The notes beneath the pieces are model-generated. The model saw nothing but the letters and a program-made list of their open reading frames with translations, did no database searches and had not been told where the DNA came from. The position numbers were made by a program, and so were the translations under genes. From Thermofilum adornatum (GTDB lineage: Archaea > Thermoproteota > Thermoprotei > Thermofilales > Thermofilaceae), in the NCBI RefSeq assembly GCF_000446015.1, contig NC_022093.1, positions 1,500,001-1,532,000 of the forward strand: a DNA stretch of 32,000 nt, read 5' to 3'. This document shows positions 9,443-28,001 of this stretch, one piece after another; position 1 is the first letter of the stretch, and every line of letters starts with the position of its first letter.

Positions 9443-9916
9443 AGAAGAGTAAGGATAAGCTATTACTTTGCTGAAGACAGGTACATAGAGTTGGGCGAAA
9501 AGATTCCAAATATACCTATCGTACATCTCATTATAAAGGTCGGTAGAAAGCGGGCGAGTGAACCAGCAATAGTTGATATGGCTTTGATGGTGGCATTTAT
9601 CCAAACATGGAAATAGTAAAGATGTTTGAGGGTCTAAGCCACCAACAAAAGTTTTCCTGGAAAACCCATCTACGGCTTATCAGAGTTTGAGGTTTATACG
9701 GCTGAAGCCTTCCTTTATCAAGTAGGAAGTCTGACAAGTCGCGGAGATATTAAAGTTTACATTCCCACAGAGCCCGAGCTTCTCACGGGAGAAGTATTGA
9801 TAGGAAGGGAGATTTTAAACAGCAAGGCTCACTCCATAATTTTGGATATGAAGAGCAAACAAAACGCTAATAGAGCTACCATAGGTTCAACAAAAAGAGT
9901 ACAGTTCCCTATATGA
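9443..9916 (+). pseudogene. Possible decayed retropepsin-like (clan AA aspartic protease family) gene
   Basis: A single frame is open over 9443-9613 and 9638-9916, interrupted by TAG, TAA and TAA within 9614-9637. Neither piece has a usable start. The pieces read ...IPIVHLIIKVGRKRASEPAIVDMALMV... and ...GDIKVYIPTEPELLTGEVLIGREILNSKAHSIILD..., resembling small archaeal aspartic proteases, but D-T-G is replaced by D-M-A. Confidence 0.3.
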
Positions 9917-11339
9917 TCGATTTCACAGGCTTTAAATTGTGAAGCTCGTAGAGCCTTGCTAGAACATTGTCGAGCCTTTCGAGCTGGTCTCCTTCTAGCC
10001 CCTTGGGGGTATGCTTTGCGAGGATTTCTTGGACTTTTGCATGTGCCTTCTCAAGTAGGCTTACTCCCTTAGTTTTTGTTCTGGGCCCTAGATCCCATAT
10101 ACTTGGAATGTATATCTCCTTCCTGTAGTTCTGCCTCGTATGCTTGAGCGCCAAGAAGTTTCCCCTCTTATCTAGCACGCCTTCTCCTAAGACCTGCAAG
10201 GCCATATTGTCTTTTTCGAAGCCCCTCGCGAGTCTATCTGCAACTAATATTGCTTCACTGTCCAGGACAAGTTTTTCTAGAGACTGCACGCTTTCATACT
10301 CAAGCATCCCGGCTCCTGACACTATGTCGAAGCCCGCCATCGCCGCGACCACAGCAGTGTATGTCGTCTCTGCCCCCGCTTGGTAGTCTACCAGCTTAGA
10401 GTCGCTCAAAGCCATGTATGTATGTGTAGGTAGGTCAAGGAGCCTCGCAACGTCTCTATATCCGAGACTTATGAGGACAGCTTCCGGAGAAGTTATAGAT
10501 GCTGTCCCATAGTATGGGTGAATCATCGTGGGGCTACCACCGTATATTATCGGCGCTCCTGGTCGGACTGCCTGGGATATAACTATCCCGCTCAGGTTCT
10601 CTGCGTGGTGCTGTACCAATGCGCCATATATTGTCACAGGTGATGTTGCGCCTAGACCCGGCATCGATATGAGCTCGGCTGGAACGTTTAGCCTAGCAAG
10701 GTCTACAAGGTTCCTCGACGTCACGGTGCTCCAGGACAGGGGAGGTGTGGGGCATATGTCAAATATTGCGAAGGGCTTTTCTGCGTAGTCTTCCCTTATG
10801 CTTGCAAGCATATCTACCATTAGCGGGAGGTTTTCCACCGTAAATGCGCCAGTAACCACTGGCTTCGTGGAATACTTTAGGACAACGTACAGCCTAACAG
10901 CATCTCTCACTTCTACTGGTACGTCTGAAGGCACAAGGGCAGTGCTCTGAGCCCTCAAGCCGGGCGATGCATCGACAAGGGTTACAAGATTCTTTAGGTC
11001 TATAAGGGTAGGGTTTCTAGGCTCCGACGATCCGTAGTCAAGGATACGGATCGCCGCAGACCCTGGGTCAAAGATCCTCGCCCCCTCTCCAAGGACTCCT
11101 ACAAGGTTTCCTTCTCGGTCATAAAGCCTTATTCTCCTTGGCACCGTCTTCAGCGAATCCTCGACAAGGCTCTCAGGCAAAACAACCCTTCCATCCTTCC
11201 TGACACCACCAGCCTTGACAACTATCTCTTCTACGCTTTTATCTTCGAAGAACACTCCAACGGTGCCCAGAACCCTGAGTGCCTCGGCATGTAGTTCTTC
11301 TGCCTCATCCCTGCTAAGCAGGGATAGGTTTGGCTTCAT
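9909..11339 (-). CDS. MttB-superfamily methyltransferase (trimethylamine methyltransferase family, non-pyrrolysine type)
   Basis: The N-terminus LSRDEAEELHAEALRVLGTVGVFFEDKSVEEIVVKAGGVRKDGRVVLPESLVEDSLKTVPRRIRLYDREG fits the MttB (COG5598) family. The 476-aa ORF is uninterrupted with no in-frame TAG. An ATGA overlap links it to the upstream corrinoid gene, and GAGGAGGGGTGGAG (SD) lies upstream. Confidence 0.85.
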   Translation of the reverse strand: MKPNLSLLSRDEAEELHAEALRVLGTVGVFFEDKSVEEIVVKAGGVRKDGRVVLPESLVEDSLKTVPRRIRLYDREGNLVGVLGEGARIFDPGSAAIRILDYGSSEPRNPTLIDLKNLVTLVDASPGLRAQSTALVPSDVPVEVRDAVRLYVVLKYSTKPVVTGAFTVENLPLMVDMLASIREDYAEKPFAIFDICPTPPLSWSTVTSRNLVDLARLNVPAELISMPGLGATSPVTIYGALVQHHAENLSGIVISQAVRPGAPIIYGGSPTMIHPYYGTASITSPEAVLISLGYRDVARLLDLPTHTYMALSDSKLVDYQAGAETTYTAVVAAMAGFDIVSGAGMLEYESVQSLEKLVLDSEAILVADRLARGFEKDNMALQVLGEGVLDKRGNFLALKHTRQNYRKEIYIPSIWDLGPRTKTKGVSLLEKAHAKVQEILAKHTPKGLEGDQLERLDNVLARLYELHNLKPVKSII

Positions 11340-11995
11340 CTAGCTCCACCCCTCCTCTTTGCAAGCATCTCTTTTACTATCCTGACAGACTCGAACGCGT
11401 CCCTACCCCAGACATCTGCTCCTATCTCTCTTACCCATTCCTCAGTTACAGGCGCACCCCCAGCTATTACAATGACCTTTTCTCTAATACCCCTCTTCTT
11501 AAGCTCTTCTATAACGTTTCTCTGCTCAAGCATCGTTGTAGTCATGAGCGCACTCATCCCGACAACGTCCGCGTTATACTTCTCGGCGGCCTCTGCGAAC
11601 CTCTCCGGAGGCACATCAACGCCAAGATCTATAACCTGGAAGCCCTCAGCCTCGAAGACAGCCGCTGCCAGATTCTTGCCAAGCTCGTGTATGTCTCCCC
11701 TCACAGTGCCAAACACAGCTACACCCGTAACCGGAACATCAGATGACCCCTTGATGTGTGGCCTTAGAACATCCATGCTAGCCCTGAAAGCCTCAGCCGA
11801 CGCGACCAACTCGGGGATAAAGTATTCGCCCTTCTCGTAGAGCTCCCCCACGCGCCTCATCGCTGGAACAAGTATGTTCGAGATTATTTCTCTGGGAGAC
11901 AGCCCCTCTTCCAATAGCTTTTGGGTAGCATCAGAAGCAAGCCTATCATCGCCGTCGACAATAGCCCTGTATAGCACTTCGCTAGCATCTGACAT
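11336..11995 (-). CDS. Corrinoid (cobalamin-binding) methyl-carrier protein, MtbC/MttC-like
   Basis: An N-terminal helical cap is followed by a Rossmann B12-binding domain. The D-x-H-x-x-G motif is present (GDIHELGKNL), followed by GFQVIDLGVDVP and MSALMTTT. Confidence 0.88.
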   Translation of the reverse strand: MSDASEVLYRAIVDGDDRLASDATQKLLEEGLSPREIISNILVPAMRRVGELYEKGEYFIPELVASAEAFRASMDVLRPHIKGSSDVPVTGVAVFGTVRGDIHELGKNLAAAVFEAEGFQVIDLGVDVPPERFAEAAEKYNADVVGMSALMTTTMLEQRNVIEELKKRGIREKVIVIAGGAPVTEEWVREIGADVWGRDAFESVRIVKEMLAKRRGGAR

Positions 11996-14347: not shown

Positions 14348-16873
14348 TCATGCCTTCTCAACACGAACAACAACTTCCTGTGACATGATTCCACCCGCCA
14401 CGGGGTCAGCCTTTACACCTGTCAAAGTATGGTATGGTACACCGAACTTGGTAAAGTGCAGTGCCTCGCTCTTGTGGCCAAAGTCGCTTGAGACCCAGAT
14501 AGTGTCTTCTCTGACAAGGTCTGTCGGGAAGGCGACAGCCTCCACGCTGGCTCCCGTCTCAACACTTATCAGCTTTATCTTGTCGCCCTTCTTTATGCCC
14601 AGGCTCTCAGCAACGCTCCTGTTTATCCATGCCATCCTCTTAAACTCGGGGGTCAGCACTGACAGGAACGGCTCGTCGGCAGTAGACGTGTGCGTCATGG
14701 TGGGGACACGCCCATACACCACATAGAAAGTTGTCTTCCCGTCGGCCTTGCCGTATACCTCTGGCTCTGCCCATGCAACTATGGGATCCCAGTACGGCTG
14801 GTAGCCCTTCTTTGCCTTTATGTTGTTCAATGCGAAGCTAAATATCTCGATCCGTCCAGACGGGGTTAACAGCTGGCCGTTTAGCGTCTTCTGTATCATT
14901 TCCTTGCGGAGCGTCACAGCGTCCTTGACAACGATGAGTCCCTCGCTCTCGAGCTTAGCTACGTCGAGGTTCCTCGCCGAGGCTTGTACCTTGCGTATGC
15001 CTTTTACCCCTTCTTTTTCGTATGCATCTTTGAGCTTTGCTCCCATTGCCTGTGGGTCAGCGGCTCCTAGTGCTTTTGCGAAGTTTACCCAGAACTTGTT
15101 ATAGTAGTCCTCGCCTAGACGTTTCACTATGCCTACGACGATGTCTATAACGTGTCGTGTGTCGTAGAGTGGTTGCACGGCGGCCACACGTGTATGGAAG
15201 CCTAGCACGGGCGCATAAGCCATTCCATAAAGGGGATCATCCCTTTCAAGGAAACTATGCTCGGGCAATACTATGTCGGCGTATAGAACAGTATCGTTCG
15301 GATAAATGTCTACAGCAATAACCTTCTCCAGTTTCTTGAAGGCATTCCTCCACCTTGTAGAGTCGGGGCCTGTCATAGCTAGGTTTGTAGTAAACAGGAA
15401 AACAGTCGAGATCTTGTAGGGGTCTCCCTTCTCGATGGCGTCTAGGAAGCCCTGGAAAGTAAAGCCCTTAGAGGCCATGGCTACGCCCTGCTTTGTCCCC
15501 CATATTCTCATTACGCTTTCCTCGCTGACGTCTGGAGTTGGTGTAGCTGTGCTACCAACACCTGTAATTATTATTCCGTCCTTAATTAGGCCACCAACAA
15601 GGGCATTGAGGATAGCTGCTGCCCTCCACGTCATAACGCTGTTCTTATACTTGGGGTCGTGCCACCCAGTGTCTACTGCGGCTGGCCTAGTCTTTCCGAA
15701 CTCTATTCCGACTTGCCTAATTGTAGCGGCGGGTATGCCGGTTATTTTCTCTGCCCATTCTGGAGTATAATCTGCTACTTTTTCCTTGAGGATCTGGAAG
15801 ACGGGCTTTGCCTTCTTGTCTCCAACCGTAAACTCGCCCTCGAGTGCGGGCAGTATAGCTTCTTCGTGCTTGACTGCCTTGTTCTGTGCAAGGTCCCAGA
15901 CAAGGTACTTGATCTTTCCAGCAGCGTCAGTTCCCGCAGTTAAAGGCGTGCCGTCTTCTGCTACAAGCATCGGTGCGTTTGTAAACTTTCTCAGGAAGTC
16001 TGCGTCGTAGAGCCCCTCAGAAATTACGACGTTGATTAGTGCCAGTAGGAAGGCTAGGTCTGTTCCAGGCCTTATTGGGAGCCAGAGGTCAGCCTTGGCG
16101 GCTGTCTCGCTGAAACGCGGGTCAACAACTACGAGCTTGTAGTTTCCTATTTTCTGGCCTGCCCGTGTCCCGTGCACCACTGAGATGCTTCCAAAGAAGT
16201 TTCTCCTTATAACAACGAGATACTTTATGTTTTCGTAGTCTGTGAGGATCTGAGCGTGAGTGCCTACACCGATAGCACTAGACCATCCGAAAGCTTTGGG
16301 GAAGAAGCATGCCCCTCCGGGTATTCCTATAGCATTGGGAGTGCCAATAGTTTCTGCAAAGGCCTTCATTAAAGGCTCAAGGTAGAGACAGAGGGGCCAG
16401 CCCCCGATCATGGCAACTTCCTTTATTCTTCCCTCAGAGATCAGCTTCTTCAAGTGAGAAGCCACAGCGTCGAGCGCCTGGTCCCAGCTTGCCTCCGTGA
16501 AGCCGGTGAAACTGCCCCTCTGTCCGGGGTCGTTCCTGATAAGCGGCTTTTTCAGCCTGTCCGGGTTATATGTCCTAAACAGTGCAGACTGGCCCCTCGC
16601 ACATATTTTACCAAGGTTTATAGGCCCCTTTGGATTACCCTCAATCTTCTCAATCTTGCCGTCTCTAACCCTAACCAATAGCTGGCACGCTGCAGGACAC
16701 ATCATGCATATTGTGGGAACCCACTTCTCCTCTCCCTGGGCTTCAGTTCTCTGTGTTTGGGGCTTGAGAAGCCTAAGTGTAGGTGTGGACATGGTTGCTG
16801 TTACGCCGACGATCCCAGCGGCCTTGAGGAATTCTCTGCGGCTTAAACTGGTTCTGCTGGTTGTATCGGTCAT
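14348..16873 (-). CDS. Molybdopterin (bis-PGD) oxidoreductase catalytic subunit, TAT-exported, Psr/Phs/Ttr/Arr-like; substrate unknown
   Basis: Twin-arginine signal SRREFLKAAGIVGVTA. N-terminal Fe-S motif CMMCPAACQLLV...ICARG. 841 aa with an A-B-C-chaperone gene order. The candidate Mo/W ligand Cys is in PGGACFFPKAFG. Confidence 0.88.
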   Translation of the reverse strand: MTDTTSRTSLSRREFLKAAGIVGVTATMSTPTLRLLKPQTQRTEAQGEEKWVPTICMMCPAACQLLVRVRDGKIEKIEGNPKGPINLGKICARGQSALFRTYNPDRLKKPLIRNDPGQRGSFTGFTEASWDQALDAVASHLKKLISEGRIKEVAMIGGWPLCLYLEPLMKAFAETIGTPNAIGIPGGACFFPKAFGWSSAIGVGTHAQILTDYENIKYLVVIRRNFFGSISVVHGTRAGQKIGNYKLVVVDPRFSETAAKADLWLPIRPGTDLAFLLALINVVISEGLYDADFLRKFTNAPMLVAEDGTPLTAGTDAAGKIKYLVWDLAQNKAVKHEEAILPALEGEFTVGDKKAKPVFQILKEKVADYTPEWAEKITGIPAATIRQVGIEFGKTRPAAVDTGWHDPKYKNSVMTWRAAAILNALVGGLIKDGIIITGVGSTATPTPDVSEESVMRIWGTKQGVAMASKGFTFQGFLDAIEKGDPYKISTVFLFTTNLAMTGPDSTRWRNAFKKLEKVIAVDIYPNDTVLYADIVLPEHSFLERDDPLYGMAYAPVLGFHTRVAAVQPLYDTRHVIDIVVGIVKRLGEDYYNKFWVNFAKALGAADPQAMGAKLKDAYEKEGVKGIRKVQASARNLDVAKLESEGLIVVKDAVTLRKEMIQKTLNGQLLTPSGRIEIFSFALNNIKAKKGYQPYWDPIVAWAEPEVYGKADGKTTFYVVYGRVPTMTHTSTADEPFLSVLTPEFKRMAWINRSVAESLGIKKGDKIKLISVETGASVEAVAFPTDLVREDTIWVSSDFGHKSEALHFTKFGVPYHTLTGVKADPVAGGIMSQEVVVRVEKA

Positions 16874-16897
16874 ACAATATATTGTTTGTTATTAATC

Positions 16898-16906
16898 AAT
16901 ATAAAT
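16898..16906 (-). promoter_or_regulatory. TATA box (minus strand ATTTATATT) of the oxidoreductase operon
   Basis: It is centred about 29 nt upstream of the ATG at 16873, which implies a leaderless or near-leaderless mRNA. Confidence 0.5.
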
Positions 16907-17049
16907 GATTATGTAAAAATATTAATATTCCTAGACTTGAATATCGTTTTTCATACATATATTTTTAATAACATGTTTTTTGGGATCCCCTATTTCTTCC
17001 TCTTCTGTGGAGCGTCATTATAAGCTGAAGTAGTTCGCTTGTCTAGGTT

Positions 17050-17065
17050 GTTGACGTGCGTCAAC
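17050..17065. promoter_or_regulatory. Palindromic operator candidate 1: GTTGACG-TG-CGTCAAC
   Basis: 7-bp perfect arms with a 2-nt centre. It abuts the upstream (BRE) side of the TATA box at 17066-17076. Confidence 0.5.
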
Positions 17066-17076
17066 TTTATATATTT
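17066..17076 (+). promoter_or_regulatory. TATA box (TTTATATATTT) of the DUF438/HTH operon
   Basis: Canonical archaeal TATA, about 32-40 nt upstream of the GTG at 17108. Confidence 0.55.
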
Positions 17077-17099
17077 GACTCTAATTCATTATTGTTGGC

Positions 17100-17115
17100 G
17101 ATGACACGTGTCAAC
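17100..17115. promoter_or_regulatory. Palindromic operator candidate 2: GA-TGACACGTGTCA-AC
   Basis: A perfect 12-bp palindrome at 17102-17113 overlaps the GTG start (17108). It shares G-(T/A)-TGAC-N4-GTCAAC with site 1. The two centres are exactly 50 bp apart. Confidence 0.5.
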
Positions 17116-18424
17116 AAATTTGGAAAAGATAGAGACCTTGAAAACAATTATCAAGCTATTGCATGAGGGGAAAAGCGTCCAGGAGCTAAAGGAACAATAT
17201 TCAGATCTTCTTAGACAGGTTTCACCCTTGGAGATACCATTCCTGGAACAACAGCTAGTAAGAGAAGGACTTGTGTCGGTGAACGATATACTTAAACTGT
17301 GCGATCTACATGTAGAGCTTTTCAGGGAGTCACTCGAAACCAGGACACTACAAGGTGTGCCCAGTGGTCATCCACTGGACCTCCTAATGAAGGAAAACGA
17401 CTGGATTGCAAAGAGGGCCGAGATCCTTGGAATGTATGCCTCCTCTCTATTGGCGGCAGATCAGGCCAGGACTCCTGGTCTTCTGGAAAACATTAACAGG
17501 ATTCTAGGTGACCTGAAAAAGTTGAGGCTACATTACAGGAAGCTCCAGATGATAGTTTTTCCCTACCTTGAGAGGAGGGGCATCATCGCTGTTCCAAGAG
17601 TCCTCTGGGGAAGAGAAGACCAAGCACTCCGCAAACTACGTGAATTGTCAACAGAGATCGATTCCAAGCTGAAGAGCAAAGAAGCTATAGACCACAAAAA
17701 CCTTGCTGGCCGCCTCTTAGAGCTCTCCCGTGAAATACAGGACTTGGCTTTTCGAGAAGCCAAGATTCTGTTCCCAGCACTCTGGACATTGCTTGGCGAA
17801 GGAGAGTGGGTTGCGATACACGAAATTGCCGGCGAATTCGGCTACATTGTGGATGTCGACATACATGCTTGGAAACCTAACGTTGAGCCCGTACTGCCCT
17901 ACCAAATCAAGCCTATAATAACAGATGAACAGCTAGCAAGGGTTCCCGAAGAATTCAGACAAGTCGTCGCCGAAAAACTGGTGCCAGACGACTATCAAGT
18001 AAACCGAGATGGAGACCTAAACCTGTCGACGGGTTTCCTGGACAAAGTTGAATTAGAAGGCATATTCAAGGCTCTTCCACTAGAGATAACCTTTGCCGAC
18101 ACAAACAGGCGAGTCAGGTTATTCACCAAGAGCGAGACAGCAGAAGGGTTCCCCAGGGCGAAAACAATTATTGGCAGGAGGCTAGAGTTCTGCCACCCAC
18201 CAAGGCTCGAAAACTATGTGAAACTAAACGTCGAAAAATTAGAGCGAGGCCAAGAGAGATACAGGGTCTTCTGGACCAGGATGGGAGACAGGATACTCCG
18301 AGTAATTGTTTCTAGGGTAAACGATTCGAATGGACAGCTAGTAGGCATCCTGGAGATAGTCGAAGACTTCACTGAAATTCTTAATAACAGAGACGAAATA
18401 TTAAAGAAAGTAGTGGTACTCTAG
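17108..18424 (+). CDS. DUF438 / hemerythrin-like / PAS domain protein (COG2461-type putative sensor)
   Basis: The N-terminus IETLKTIIKLLHEGKSVQELKEQYSDLLRQVSPLEIPFLEQQLVREG is DUF438-like. The central part has H/E-rich helices (LCDLHVELFRE, LRLHYRKLQMIVFPYLE, FREAKILFPAL). The C-terminal part ITFADTNRRVRLFTKS...IIGRRLEFCHPPR...FWTRMGDRILRVIVSRVNDSNGQLVGILEIVEDFTEI is PAS-like. Confidence 0.75.
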   Translation: MSTNLEKIETLKTIIKLLHEGKSVQELKEQYSDLLRQVSPLEIPFLEQQLVREGLVSVNDILKLCDLHVELFRESLETRTLQGVPSGHPLDLLMKENDWIAKRAEILGMYASSLLAADQARTPGLLENINRILGDLKKLRLHYRKLQMIVFPYLERRGIIAVPRVLWGREDQALRKLRELSTEIDSKLKSKEAIDHKNLAGRLLELSREIQDLAFREAKILFPALWTLLGEGEWVAIHEIAGEFGYIVDVDIHAWKPNVEPVLPYQIKPIITDEQLARVPEEFRQVVAEKLVPDDYQVNRDGDLNLSTGFLDKVELEGIFKALPLEITFADTNRRVRLFTKSETAEGFPRAKTIIGRRLEFCHPPRLENYVKLNVEKLERGQERYRVFWTRMGDRILRVIVSRVNDSNGQLVGILEIVEDFTEILNNRDEILKKVVVL

Positions 18425-18426
18425 CC

Positions 18427-18831
18427 ATGAGAAGCATATTTGAACTTGCATACCGGTACATCGAGCCCGCAGTAAGGAGACAGCTCGTCCTCGAGCTCTA
18501 CAAAAGAGGCGTAGACAGGCGCAGAATAGTAGAACTCGTCGGCATATCGTCCTCGCTCGTTACCCGTTACATAGCTGGGCAAAGAGGCAACATGCTCGAC
18601 CTAACCCCCTACAGGGACGTAACCATGCTTATATCTCAACTCGCCGAGAAATCTATGGGCATGTCAAAGGAACAAGTAGAGGAACAAATATACCGCATTG
18701 TGCTCTACTTTTTGTCCCACAAGTATTTCTGCAATGTGCACCGTGTTCTTGTACCGGACATAGACCCGACAAAATGCCAAATATGTCCAAGCCTCTTCAA
18801 AAACTCTTCTCTAAGCCCAGAGCTTAGATAG
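18427..18831 (+). CDS. Small HTH transcriptional regulator (COG2522-like) with C-terminal Cys/His cluster
   Basis: RRRIVELVGISSSLVTRYIAGQRG is a helix-turn-helix of the gls-s-vS-Y--gkRG type. The C-terminus CNVH-x13-CQIC could bind a metal. It starts 2 nt after the DUF438 stop. Confidence 0.55.
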   Translation: MRSIFELAYRYIEPAVRRQLVLELYKRGVDRRRIVELVGISSSLVTRYIAGQRGNMLDLTPYRDVTMLISQLAEKSMGMSKEQVEEQIYRIVLYFLSHKYFCNVHRVLVPDIDPTKCQICPSLFKNSSLSPELR

Positions 18832-18894
18832 ATGACTCAAAGTAGCATTTTTCTATATCAAGAAGGACAATGGATATTACGGCATTTAATTACG

Positions 18895-23631: not shown

Positions 23632-25509
23632 CTACTCTAGCTTTAGCCTGTTCCTTATGCGCCTAGTTGCCTCTGAGAGCTCGCTTATCCCGAGCTCTTT
23701 TAGTGTCTCGTCCCGAGGTATGCCGTACTGGTCCCAGCCAAGGTAGTCGAAGTACTCTTTTTTCTGTTTCTCGAGCTCTGTCCTATCCACTGCCTTGCCC
23801 TTGAATGGCCCAGACGGAAGTGGCTCGTAGAACCTGGGCGGGTTGTCGTCGTGTATCCTGGGGTCCCAATAGAGGTCTGGCCCTCCGAGGAGGAGTAACA
23901 CTCTCTGGAGGGAAACTATTCTCCTGGCGTGCTCCCTGAACCATTTTTCGCTAGAGATTTCCCAGCCTGTTATTGCTGTCAGGAATTGGTATGGCAGGTC
24001 GTCTACGGCGTTGAAGGAGCATATGACCGCGGAGTCCTCAAATGCAGCTGTGAACTCGCCCCAAGCCTTCTCTACTGGCAACCTTGGCGGGCTTGTGTGG
24101 TCTCCTCCCTGTACGCCTACAGCATAGGTAAAAGCCTGTGGGAAGTCTTTTCCGCTCCTCGCGCCGTGGGCACCTATGCCTATACCCTTTACGTGTACGG
24201 CGTAGCGCGACAGGTCTTGTCCCTTTAATTTGCTCAGCTTGTCTGCGGCCCTTGCTACTCCCTCTGCTAGTATATCTCCTATGCCCTTCCTGTAGGCTAT
24301 TGCCTCGAGTAGCCTTGCGAACGCCTCGGTGTCTCCCCATTTCAGGTCGAAGCCTACCTCTTCCCTTGTGAGGATCCCCTTCTCGCATAGCTCGGCGGCG
24401 AAGCCGGCAACGTTTCCTGTCTGTATGCCGCACAGGCCTAGGTCGTCTGCTAGGCTCGAGAGGTATATGTTTCCCCTAGGCTCGAAGACGCCGAGGTTGG
24501 GGCCTAGGTACGCCTGTAGCTCGTAGTCCGGCCCGTCCGTAACTGTACCATTGTATTTCCCACCGATTAGCCTCGAGATCTTCATACATGTTGATGGGCA
24601 GCCATAGTCTCCCCAGTACCTCTTGACCCAGTGTGCCTCATAGTTGTTTACGCCCATTGTCCTGGCATCGTGCCACTCTTCCTGCCAGTTCCTTATCGGC
24701 TCGCTACTCGTAAGGTTTGCTACCTCGTATCCACCGCTGCTTGTCCCCCACTGTTTCCAGAAAATGTTCTGGTTCAGCCTGTTCCACGCCTCCCTTACCA
24801 GTAGCTTTACCCATTCTGGGTGCTTGGCCGGCGGCATGGGCCCAAAGCCCTTGGCTACCACGGCCTTGAGCTTCTTGGACCCCATTACAGCCCCGTACCC
24901 GCCGTAGCCCGCTGCATGTGTAAGCTTTGCCATTACAGCGGCTGTCCTGACCATATTTTCTCCGGCTGGCCCTATGTAGACGAAGGAGGGCTCCTTTGTC
25001 AAGCCCACGTGGGCAAGGTTTTTCCTCTTGAGCTCGCCCCAGACCTCGCTGAAGAGCTTCTGGAACGTTTCCCTGCCCCTGAGGCCCCATAGGTGCTCTG
25101 CAGACCTAACCTCGACCTTTTCTCCCTCTATATAGATGTATACGGGGTCCTTCGAGGCTCCCTTTACTATGAGGCCGTCGTAGCCTGCGGCCCGTAGCTC
25201 GATTGCAAGCTCGCTTGACACTACAGAGCCCACGACGCCGTTTGTCTGAGGAGACTTGCCCGAGACAGCGAGCTTTACGCCTGGATAGTAGCCGGTCAGG
25301 GGACCTGTCAGGAATAGTAGGAGGTTTTCGGGCCCCAGCGGGTCCACTTGTTCCCACTTGTGCCCGAGCTCTTTCCAGAGGATGTACGCAGCTAGGCCCC
25401 TGCCCCCTATGAACTTGTAGGCTGTCTCTTCGTCGAGCTCTATTACCCTGTCTTTGTCTCTTGAGAGGTCTACCTCTAGTATTTTCCCGTTATAGCCGGG
25501 TATGTTCAT
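23632..25509 (-). CDS. aor: Aldehyde:ferredoxin oxidoreductase family tungsto/molybdopterin enzyme
   Basis: The N-terminus GKILEVDLSRDKDRVIELDEETAYKFIGGRGLAAYILWKEL is the classic AOR N-terminal domain. 625 aa. An ATGA overlap links it to the upstream ferredoxin gene, and GGTGGTGAG (SD) is present. Confidence 0.9.
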   Translation of the reverse strand: MNIPGYNGKILEVDLSRDKDRVIELDEETAYKFIGGRGLAAYILWKELGHKWEQVDPLGPENLLLFLTGPLTGYYPGVKLAVSGKSPQTNGVVGSVVSSELAIELRAAGYDGLIVKGASKDPVYIYIEGEKVEVRSAEHLWGLRGRETFQKLFSEVWGELKRKNLAHVGLTKEPSFVYIGPAGENMVRTAAVMAKLTHAAGYGGYGAVMGSKKLKAVVAKGFGPMPPAKHPEWVKLLVREAWNRLNQNIFWKQWGTSSGGYEVANLTSSEPIRNWQEEWHDARTMGVNNYEAHWVKRYWGDYGCPSTCMKISRLIGGKYNGTVTDGPDYELQAYLGPNLGVFEPRGNIYLSSLADDLGLCGIQTGNVAGFAAELCEKGILTREEVGFDLKWGDTEAFARLLEAIAYRKGIGDILAEGVARAADKLSKLKGQDLSRYAVHVKGIGIGAHGARSGKDFPQAFTYAVGVQGGDHTSPPRLPVEKAWGEFTAAFEDSAVICSFNAVDDLPYQFLTAITGWEISSEKWFREHARRIVSLQRVLLLLGGPDLYWDPRIHDDNPPRFYEPLPSGPFKGKAVDRTELEKQKKEYFDYLGWDQYGIPRDETLKELGISELSEATRRIRNRLKLE

Positions 25510-26015
25510 TTCTCACCACCATACATTGTCTCGTAGAGCCTTTGTGCTACGGCCTCGGGCAGGGTAGAGTATATCTTGAAGGATACGCTCCGGTAGGGCA
25601 CGACCCTCAGGGCCCCGTAGCCCGCTTCTTGGCAAGCCTTTACGCATTCTGGCTCGCCCCCGCAGAGGTCGCATACAAGTGCCTTTCTCGTCTTCGGGTG
25701 TAGCCTCATGACCTTTCCCGGGCATGCACGTACACAATCTCCACAGCCCGTGCATTTCTCCTCGTCGACTAGCACTGCCCCAGTAGAGTCGTCTACCCTC
25801 AGGGCTGAGTACTTGCATGCCTTCACGCATGGATAGTCCCTGCACTGTGTGCAGAGGTGTGGGACGTCTACTCCTGGGAAGAACTCGAATACCCTTATTC
25901 TGCTTGCCTCTGGCCAGACTGTTCCCTCGTGTTTTAGGCTACATGCAACTTCGCAGAGCCTGCAGCCTGAGCATTTTAGTGGGTCACGTAGAATAAAGAT
26001 AGGTTGCCTTGACAC
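25506..26015 (-). CDS. Four-cluster [4Fe-4S] ferredoxin-like electron-transfer subunit, co-transcribed with AOR
   Basis: 16 Cys in four motifs: CSGCRLCEVAC, CTQCRDYPCVKAC, CTGCGDCVRACP and CDLCGGEPECVKAC. No signal peptide. GTG start at 26015. Confidence 0.85.
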   Translation of the reverse strand: MSRQPIFILRDPLKCSGCRLCEVACSLKHEGTVWPEASRIRVFEFFPGVDVPHLCTQCRDYPCVKACKYSALRVDDSTGAVLVDEEKCTGCGDCVRACPGKVMRLHPKTRKALVCDLCGGEPECVKACQEAGYGALRVVPYRSVSFKIYSTLPEAVAQRLYETMYGGEK

Positions 26016-27322: not shown

Positions 27323-28001
27323 ATGATAGTGGAGCGGGAGATACTTTGTTTCCAGGGGGGGCAAAACAGAGAGGTGCAGAGACAAGATTGCAGTTGAGGA
27401 GGAATACGAGCTTTATATAAATGGGTCCAGGCAGGCTTCGTACATGTGTTCTCCAAATAATATAGAGGAGCTGGCCTACGGCTTCCTAGCAGAGCGGAGC
27501 TCAAAGCCTAAGTCTCCTACACAAATAAGGATTGAGAATGGAAAGATAAAGGTGGATGAAGAGCTGGTTGAGGCGGTCTTCACGAGGAGGGAAGCCAGGT
27601 TCCCTGTCGAAAAGATAATTTCTGCTGTCGAGGCTTTGTACACTAGGGGTTCGGCTTTTCGGGAAACGGGGGCTTTTCACTGTGCGCTTTGCTTTATGCC
27701 AAGCGGCGAAGTATTGTTCCATGTTGAGGACGTTAGCAGGCACTGTGCCGTGGACAAGTGTATAGGGTTCCTGGCAAAGTCAAATATTGAACCCTCAGCT
27801 GTGGGATTTGCCGTGTCCTGTAGGCTCACAAAGAGCATCGTCGAGAAGCTTGCCTCGGTGGGGGTAAGGCTTGTAGCATCAAAGGCGGCTCCCACCCTTC
27901 AGGGAATACAGGTCGCCGAGCAGAACGGTATAACTCTGATAGGCTTCGCTAGGAATAATAGGTTCAACATTTATACGCATCCAGAAAGAATAATTTTTTG
28001 A
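27323..28001 (+). pseudogene. fdhD: FdhD-like sulfurtransferase gene interrupted by a +1 frameshift in a G7 tract
   Basis: The C-terminal part reads FRETGAFHCA...VEDVSRHCAVDKCIG...LVASKAAPTLQGIQVAEQNGITLIGFARNNRFNIYTHPERI, which is the FdhD pattern (TGG-HAA, EDvGRHNAvDK, SAPT, TLvGF-R). The frame is open upstream to 27330 (..KTERCRDKIAVEEEYELYINGSRQASY..) with no start. ATG 27323 in another frame reads MIVEREILCFQGG up to the G7 run (27355-27361). Six Gs would fuse the two frames. Confidence 0.65.

Follow-up and report, generated by a model that had tools for sequence, protein, structure and literature searches.

The window analysed here, a stretch of 32,000 nucleotides from Thermofilum adornatum (contig NC_022093.1, positions 1,500,001 to 1,532,000), carries a gene for a sensor-type protein of 438 amino acids (aa) and, directly behind it, a gene for a 134-aa protein with a helix-turn-helix (HTH). 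Two related palindromes, O1 (site 1) and O2 (site 2), lie at the 5' end of this pair, in a 234-bp intergenic region common to the pair and a divergent molybdenum/tungsten (Mo/W) oxidoreductase operon. Coordinates are collected in Table 1.

Table 1. Putative operators, promoter elements and genes of the sensor-regulator operon, with their positions in the window.
Feature	Position	Strand	Remarks
O1, putative operator, GTTGACGTGCGTCAAC	17050..17065		GTTGAC-GTGC-GTCAAC; right arm abuts the TATA box and occupies the 6-bp position of the transcription factor B (TFB) recognition element (BRE); orthologues keep the register
TATA box TTTATATATTT, sensor-regulator operon promoter	17066..17076	+	read from the sequence; putative function
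Shine-Dalgarno-like GGCGAT	17097..17102	+	GGTG in orthologues, adjoining the left arm of O2 on its 5' side
O2, putative operator, GATGACACGTGTCAAC	17100..17115		overlies the short putative 5' untranslated region (5'UTR) and the first three codons, of which the GTG start is 17108-17110
Sensor-type protein, 438 aa, DUF438 + hemerythrin + PAS_10	17108..18424	+	domains by Pfam
HTH protein, 134 aa, presumed operator-binding regulator	18427..18831	+	begins 2 nt past the sensor stop codon
Oligo-T tract, likely archaeal terminator of the two-gene operon	18848..18852	+	17 nt past the HTH stop codon; putative, from a reading of the sequence

The 6-bp arms of O1 enclose a non-palindromic spacer, GTGC. 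O2 reads GATGAC-ACGT-GTCAAC, is symmetric at 14 of its 16 positions and has a perfect 12-bp palindrome, TGACACGTGTCA, as its core. The TATA-like sequence follows O1 without a gap, and the GTG that starts the 438-aa open reading frame (ORF) occupies positions 7-9 of the O2 12-mer. Both palindromes had been described in an earlier, sequence-only reading of this DNA, and their sequences and coordinates were found to be exact, as was the perfect 12-bp core; the distance of 50 bp between the two centres is also correct for this strain. A search for the exact pattern TGACNNNNGTCA (TGAC-N4-GTCA) gave two matches in the 32-kb window, O1 and O2, against 0.35 expected, and at least two matches were reached by 7 of 100 shuffled windows. 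When the 16-mer was allowed up to two mismatches, the window again yielded only O1 and O2, and no enrichment was seen. With TTGACN4GTCAA at up to two mismatches, the sole other match with one mismatch was TTTACACCTGTCAA at 14412-14425, in the 3' part of the ORF for the catalytic subunit of the oxidoreductase, which is probably a chance occurrence. Taken alone, the window statistics are modest, suggestive rather than compelling.

Orthologous pairs were gathered by exact-protein look-ups, one genome scan and one metagenome scan with the HTH alignment. The lineages covered were Thermofilum strains, Fervidicoccus, Desulfurococcaceae, Staphylothermus marinus F1, Desulfurococcus amylolyticus, Zestosphaera, Ignisphaera, a metagenome-assembled genome (MAG) of the Sulfolobales and two Korarchaeota (loci carry L numbers below, proteins P numbers). 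The sensor and HTH genes were found as a pair in at least 19 lineages of Thermoproteota and Korarchaeota. Over 19 representative loci, comprising 197,437 bp, all 19 exact matches to TGACN4GTCA fell within the 2,725 bp of sensor/HTH promoter windows and none fell outside, while base composition predicts 2.9 matches over the whole and 0.04 in the promoter windows; chance occurrence of the motif is ruled out by this cross-lineage enrichment. The same dyad is present in at least 17 lineages, and the motif is retained down to 48% identity of the sensor and 34% identity of the HTH protein, with flanking intergenic DNA that is not alignable. Non-conservation in orthologous promoters had been named beforehand as the outcome speaking against the two sites, and the opposite was found.

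In every lineage the sensor and HTH genes overlap or have a gap of 0-4 nt, and the neighbouring genes differ everywhere (bacteriophage exclusion (BREX) genes, DNA polymerase B, ribosomal proteins, superoxide reductase, nitroreductase and others). Two lineages depart from the usual gene order. In L031 the HTH gene precedes the sensor gene and one palindrome is found at the start of each, and in L033 the two genes are divergent, with two palindromes in the spacer of approximately 75 bp, one of them over the sensor ATG. Comparison of the Thermofilum strains shows no change in either arm, whereas the spacer of site 1 differs at its first two positions (GT, AT, TT, AA). No further promoter-located copies of the motif were found in the window or in the fetched flanks, which in S. 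marinus, D. amylolyticus and others extended to as much as 10 kb on either side. Phylogenetic footprinting, together with the covariation described below, strongly supports a reading of the palindromes as conserved operator sites, the observation itself being far beyond chance.

The position of each site within the promoter is conserved as well. From the T of TGAC in site 1 to the first base of the TATA octamer there are 14 nt in 12 of the 13 lineages carrying this site, the exception being Fervidicoccus with 17 nt, and every orthologous promoter has a TATA-like octamer at the equivalent position. The right arm of site 1, GTCAA(A/C) or in several lineages GTAAA, forms the 6 bp immediately 5' of the TATA box. 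The sequence-only reading had put site 1 at the BRE position beside the TATA box, and this register bears it out. Site 2 keeps its distance from the start codon, 6 nt from TGAC in 10 of 10 lineages, with GTG or ATG at positions 7-9 followed by TCA-A(C/A/T); in L031 and L046 the palindrome is just 5' of the start codon and does not overlap it. GGTG is found just 5' of site 2, and not of site 1, in L005, L008, L010, L004, L032, L038 and L048, and GGCG takes its place in the window. Codons 2-3 of the sensor gene are fixed and the next approximately 8 residues vary; as conservation of the protein stops at codon 3, the right arm of O2 appears to be constrained at the level of the DNA.

In the lineages with site 2 the TATA-to-start distance is 40-44 nt. 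By TATA geometry this implies that transcription would start at approximately 17096 +/- 3, with a 5'UTR of roughly 10-14 nt and with site 2 at about +4 to +20. Site 2 had been thought to cover both the transcription start and the GTG start codon; it does lie over the codon, but probably just downstream of the transcription start. In L025 and L028, which have only site 1, the start codon is 29 nt past the start of the TATA box, consistent with leaderless messenger RNAs (mRNAs).

The spacing of the two sites, centre to centre, is 48, 50, 51, 53, 53 and 62 bp in the different lineages. Only site 1 is present in at least six lineages (L025, L028, L029, L040, L042 and L024), and only site 2 in three (L038, L048 and L053). 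Helical phasing or looping as a conserved design is ruled out by this range of spacings and by the frequency of single-site lineages, and the earlier suggestion of five helical turns, a common DNA face and possible looping has to be given up; the 50-bp same-face geometry is a property of the strain and not a design rule. What stands of that suggestion is its starting point, two related dyad-symmetric elements of the type expected for a dimeric regulator.

Some loci have lost or altered parts of this arrangement. In a Thermofilum-like contig with a natural deletion (L019:3153-3998), site 1 and the TATA box are kept (GTTGACGTGCGTCATC), site 2 and approximately the first 170 sensor codons are gone, and an ORF of 281 aa remains. 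In L026:1962-2857 and L027:3489-4384 only the C-terminal PAS part of the sensor (residues ~264-438) is left, followed by an intact HTH gene; no palindrome is found upstream, and the locus has been either decayed or remodelled. In the window itself, the approximately 115 bp 5' of site 1 (16935-17049) can be aligned between the Thermofilum strains, including L001 with its replaced left neighbour. A homology breakpoint lies near 16935, and no obvious ORF or motif was noticed in 16935-17049.

The two korarchaeal lineages were informative with respect to the protein that might bind the sites. In both, the two arms of the dyad are altered in concert, from TTGAC to TTACC, while the position and the dyad symmetry are retained: at L044:3946-3965 and L050:2470-2485 the element is TTTACC-ATAC-GGTAAA or TTACCACGTGGTAA (TTACC-ACGT-GGTAA), in both at the position of site 1 and in the 14-nt register to the TATA box. 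The recognition helix of the linked HTH protein reads S(V/A)AA(V/I)SRY in Korarchaeota versus SxSL(V/I)TRY in the crenarchaeal proteins. An analysis of specificity residues did not cleanly separate HTH homologues with and without the motif within Thermoproteota, and only the korarchaeal contrast was informative.

The 134-aa protein belongs to a small family: a search of 1.84 billion proteins gave 284 representatives at E <= 1e-3, and the annotations of its members do not go beyond 'transcriptional regulator' or 'hypothetical'. Near its C-terminus it has an invariant C102-x2-H105-x11-C117-x2-C120 motif (CHCC), present in 18 of 18 aligned homologues. Pfam models gave sub-threshold matches, HTH_23 with 20.5 bits against a cut-off of 24.6 and also HTH_3 and HTH_31, and some homologues just pass; NCBIfam gave no match. 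A sequence search of the PDB with this protein returned only spurious zinc-finger and HigA matches with E > 0.09. Its distant relatives fall into two groups, HTH-CHCC proteins of approximately 120 aa and proteins of approximately 303 aa in which the module is fused to ThiN. In one of the latter (P0244, 303 aa) the ThiN domain was recognised by Pfam with E = 8e-24, and an hhalign comparison of the 134-aa protein with residues 5-129 of P0244 gave a probability of 98.1% and E = 9e-14, the CxxH...CxxC motif being common to both.

The fusion of an HTH with ThiN is what we take to be the architecture of ThiR, the archaeal thiamine regulator, with an HTH DNA-binding part and a ThiN-like ligand domain, and ThiR reportedly binds palindromic operators in vitro. 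The likeness extends over the module of approximately 125 aa including CxxH...CxxC, and both systems are archaeal and have palindromic promoter operators. However, the 134-aa protein has no ThiN domain, its only Pfam matches being the sub-threshold HTH ones. The operator sequence and regulon also differ: the motif copies found are all at the sensor/HTH operon, and there are no thiamine genes in any flank. Instead of a fused ligand domain, the putative sensing part is here a separate hemerythrin/PAS protein encoded immediately upstream. From these alignments the 134-aa protein is best described as an uncharacterised, stand-alone DNA-binding module of ThiR type.

It is also most likely the protein that would bind the palindromes. 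The sequence-only reading had proposed it as candidate binder, and it gains from two observations, as the motif follows the gene pair through changes of gene order and the korarchaeal half-site and recognition helix change together. Two unusual members of the family may be mentioned. A solitary HTH-CHCC homologue without a nearby sensor gene (L034) has a different, 8-6-8 palindrome, CATAACCT-N6-AGGTTATG, approximately 95 nt upstream (L034:2190-2211). P0191 (222 aa) combines the N-terminal part of the HTH family, its first approximately 67 residues, with a stretch that by eye resembles a flavodoxin fold and has no Pfam match; a frameshift that joined the gene to a neighbouring redox gene could account for this.

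The sensor matches PDB entry 3CAX (PF0695, uncharacterised) with E = 3e-56, and 441 homologues were found in Thermoproteota and Korarchaeota. Its gene is followed by the HTH-CHCC gene in all contexts examined, the two being merely adjacent in two lineages. Some of the neighbours are concerned with oxidative stress. In L053:3670-7355, and also in L054, the pair is followed on the same strand by genes for rubrerythrin (after a gap of 28 nt), a peroxiredoxin (AhpC/TSA) and a ZIP metal transporter, with a divergent nitroreductase gene, an arrangement that suggests an oxidative-stress operon; L053 carries only site 2, GTTGACACATGTCAAC, over the ATG. A superoxide reductase gene is located 1 kb upstream of the pair in D. 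amylolyticus (L040), and a rubrerythrin gene near it in Ignisphaera (L046). Judging from the hemerythrin domain and these neighbours, the signal is probably oxygen or peroxide, with nitric oxide (NO) or iron as alternatives.

Given these results, we propose, with a probability of about 65%, that the palindromes are dimer operators by which the HTH regulator represses its own sensor-regulator operon and from which it is released by a signal; the identity of the binder, the sign of the regulation, the transcription start and the signal are those we infer. In this model a homodimer of the HTH protein would recognise the dyad TTGAC-N4-GTCAA. A dimer at O1, the right arm of which is the BRE hexamer abutting the TATA box, would exclude TFB and TATA-binding protein (TBP). 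A dimer at O2, covering the start codon and the Shine-Dalgarno-like element at ~+4 to +20, would block recruitment of RNA polymerase or early elongation. The operon would thereby be negatively autoregulated. De-repression would follow when a signal, probably molecular oxygen, peroxide, NO or the iron status, weakens binding to the operators; the hemerythrin/PAS partner, the metal site of the regulator or both would perceive this signal.

Palindromic autoregulatory operators over core promoter elements are well known in archaea. The repressors NrpR and those of TrmB type have one or two palindromic operators over the core promoter and block pre-initiation complex assembly or RNA polymerase recruitment. 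The palindromic sites at TATA/BRE and around the transcription start are the likeness to our case, and the protein families, motifs and effectors (2-oxoglutarate and sugars for the known repressors) are the difference. The closest worked example of autorepression by promoter occlusion is MsvR of methanogens, a redox-sensitive autorepressor with a link to oxidative stress, whose boxes overlap BRE and TATA and prevent TBP/TFB binding, the binding of MsvR being redox- and cysteine-dependent (PMC3729527). Its own promoter has two or three dyad boxes, also over a transcription start, conserved upstream of all homologues (PMC3729527). The boxes in its own promoter, their overlap with BRE/TATA and their conservation upstream of homologues are shared features, and the resemblance is functional only: MsvR, of an unrelated protein family, has an ArsR-type winged HTH with a V4R domain and the motif TTCG-N7-9-CGAA, occurs in methanogens only and works without a separate sensor protein, and no V4R or MsvR match was found in the HTH protein by Pfam and NCBIfam.

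Several observations weigh against autorepression by the adjacent HTH protein. The motif, always found at the 5' end of the sensor gene, goes with that end no less closely than with the HTH gene, and solitary HTH homologues (L030/L036 and L034) are without it. A structural model of the HTH protein (pLDDT, the predicted local distance difference test, 80) had no significant Foldseek neighbour in the PDB, the weak ones being of XRE types (HigA, ClgR and C proteins). The core consensus TTGAC-N4-GTCAA is identical to that of the bacterial HcpR box (PMC1274295). Finally, the right half of O2 is also coding and its left flank is Shine-Dalgarno-like, so that its conservation could partly reflect translation.

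The position of the motif at the sensor gene, its absence from solitary HTH homologues and the identity of its core with the HcpR box make it possible that a regulator encoded elsewhere, of CRP/FNR type, HcpR/FNR-box-like or another global redox regulator, binds the sites and that the adjacent HTH protein has other targets. The HcpR box, wyTTGACnnnnGTCAArw, is that of a bacterial CRP/FNR-type regulator tied to NO/redox stress genes including hemerythrin-like genes, and predicted HcpR regulons often include hemerythrin genes (PMC1274295). The box shares both the core consensus and the 5-4-5 dyad geometry with our sites. However, HcpR sites are bacterial activator sites bound by proteins of approximately 230 aa with a cyclic nucleoside monophosphate (cNMP) domain, none of which is linked here, whereas the position of our sites relative to TATA/BRE implies promoter occlusion, and the resemblance is most likely convergent. 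No gene of CRP/FNR type (cNMP-binding plus HTH_Crp) was found in the 32-kb window or in any fetched flank. The HTH gene of L031 has its own palindrome at its start, the korarchaeal half-site changes together with the helix of the linked HTH protein, and the ThiR type, to which the HTH module is homologous, reportedly binds palindromes. Overall, a regulator encoded elsewhere appears unlikely.

It is also conceivable that the same HTH protein binds and that O1 is a positive site, at which TFB/TBP would be recruited to or stabilised at a weak BRE, as is done by Ptr2 and TFB-RF1. The operon would then be positively autoregulated, with O2 as a separate brake or without function. O1 is indeed the more widely conserved site and is register-locked to the TATA box, its right arm in several lineages is GTAAA and so nearer to an A-rich BRE, and many lineages have no O2. 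On the other hand, O1 covers the BRE hexamer itself instead of a stretch further upstream, and known repressors such as MsvR share this geometry; O2, where present, takes a classic position for blocking RNA polymerase. The lineages with O2 only (L038, L048 and L053) make sense only under repression, and we regard a positive role of O1 as quite improbable.

The last of the points gathered above leads to the idea that only site 1 is an operator and that site 2 is kept as Shine-Dalgarno element, start codon and N-terminal codons, or as an mRNA hairpin for translation. The GGTG (GGCG in the window) ahead of site 2 in every lineage and the coding of Ser-Thr/Asn/Ile by the right arm after the start codon agree with this, as does the absence of site 2 from several lineages. 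Yet the dyad of site 2 is that of site 1 in every lineage, and the non-coding left arm TGAC is kept. The lack of conservation beyond codon 3 points to a constraint on the DNA, and the palindromes of L031 and L046 lie outside the start codon. We consider this explanation very unlikely. The hairpin itself was rejected, with a folding energy of -2.9 kcal/mol at 37 C, an unfolded state at 70-85 C and a site 1 that is not transcribed.

The least probable idea is that the same two sites also control the divergent Psr/Phs-like oxidoreductase operon and couple it to the sensor, as the sequence-only reading had suggested from the common intergenic region, which is found in this strain and its closest relatives and for which MthMsvR, controlling a redox operon across a divergent intergenic region in one species, is a precedent (PMC3729527); a distance of approximately 150 bp or more separates the sites from the TATA-like sequence of the oxidoreductase promoter, read by eye near 16897-16904, the window scan found no motif copy near that promoter, and the neighbour itself is not conserved, being restricted to strains in which the oxidoreductase is at least 94% identical (L016, L018-L020), already replaced in L001 in spite of a 95% identical sensor, and absent from all other lineages.

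The oxidoreductase operon runs on the minus strand from 16873 down to 12206 and is of Psr/Phs type, with a catalytic molybdopterin subunit (which has a weak, sub-threshold match to a twin-arginine translocation (TAT) signal), a 4Fe-4S subunit, an NrfD-type membrane subunit and a TorD-like chaperone. Beside it, at 9909-11995 on the minus strand, a gene for an MttB-family methyltransferase (476 aa) adjoins one for a B12-binding corrinoid protein (219 aa), and by its sequence this is a putative methyl-transfer module. Further along, an aldehyde:ferredoxin oxidoreductase (AOR family, 625 aa) with a 4Fe-4S partner is encoded at 23632-26015 (minus strand) and an FdhD/NarQ-family protein at 27444-28001 (plus strand), 1.4 kb from the AOR pair. 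The region is rich in Mo/W-pterin enzymes and maturation genes, with the AOR, FdhD/NarQ and Psr/Phs-like genes among them.

Literature searches with the motif string and with COG2522 gave no relevant mention, a search with PF0695 gave unrelated matches only, and the titles and abstracts found for DUF438 contained none on this system. Neither the motif nor the regulator family, nor the pairing of that family with a hemerythrin/PAS protein, appears to have been described in the searchable literature. More tentatively, and at somewhat below even odds, autorepression by the HTH protein may be one side of an undescribed two-protein switch, in which the sensor would be a di-iron hemerythrin/PAS protein acting in trans on a separate regulator. 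This regulator would be a lone HTH protein of ThiR type with a Cys3-His site for Zn or Fe-S, and its operator would at the same time serve as the BRE of its own promoter. Such a switch would operate across Thermofilales, Desulfurococcales, Fervidicoccales, the Sulfolobales MAG and Korarchaeota. It might fill the place of the missing regulator for oxygen/peroxide (or NO/iron) in the anaerobic, hyperthermophilic Thermoproteota, and some lineages would have rubrerythrin and peroxiredoxin under the same control.

To our knowledge, very few pairs of transcription factor and operator have been defined for Thermofilales, Desulfurococcales and Korarchaeota, and we know of none for their oxidative or redox response. 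What is gained here is a precise operator consensus, TTGAC-N4-GTCAA (TTACC-N4-GGTAA in Korarchaeota), and the fixed placement of the sites in the promoter. To these are added a candidate regulator, whose family is uncharacterised and akin to the DNA-binding module of ThiR, and a candidate sensor of unassigned function for whose family a structure (3CAX) is available. Two families of unknown function, DUF438/hemerythrin/PAS and the small HTH-CHCC proteins, are in this way turned into a directly testable system. As the operator arm nearest the promoter coincides with the BRE, this system would also offer a clean case for competition between a regulator and TFB.

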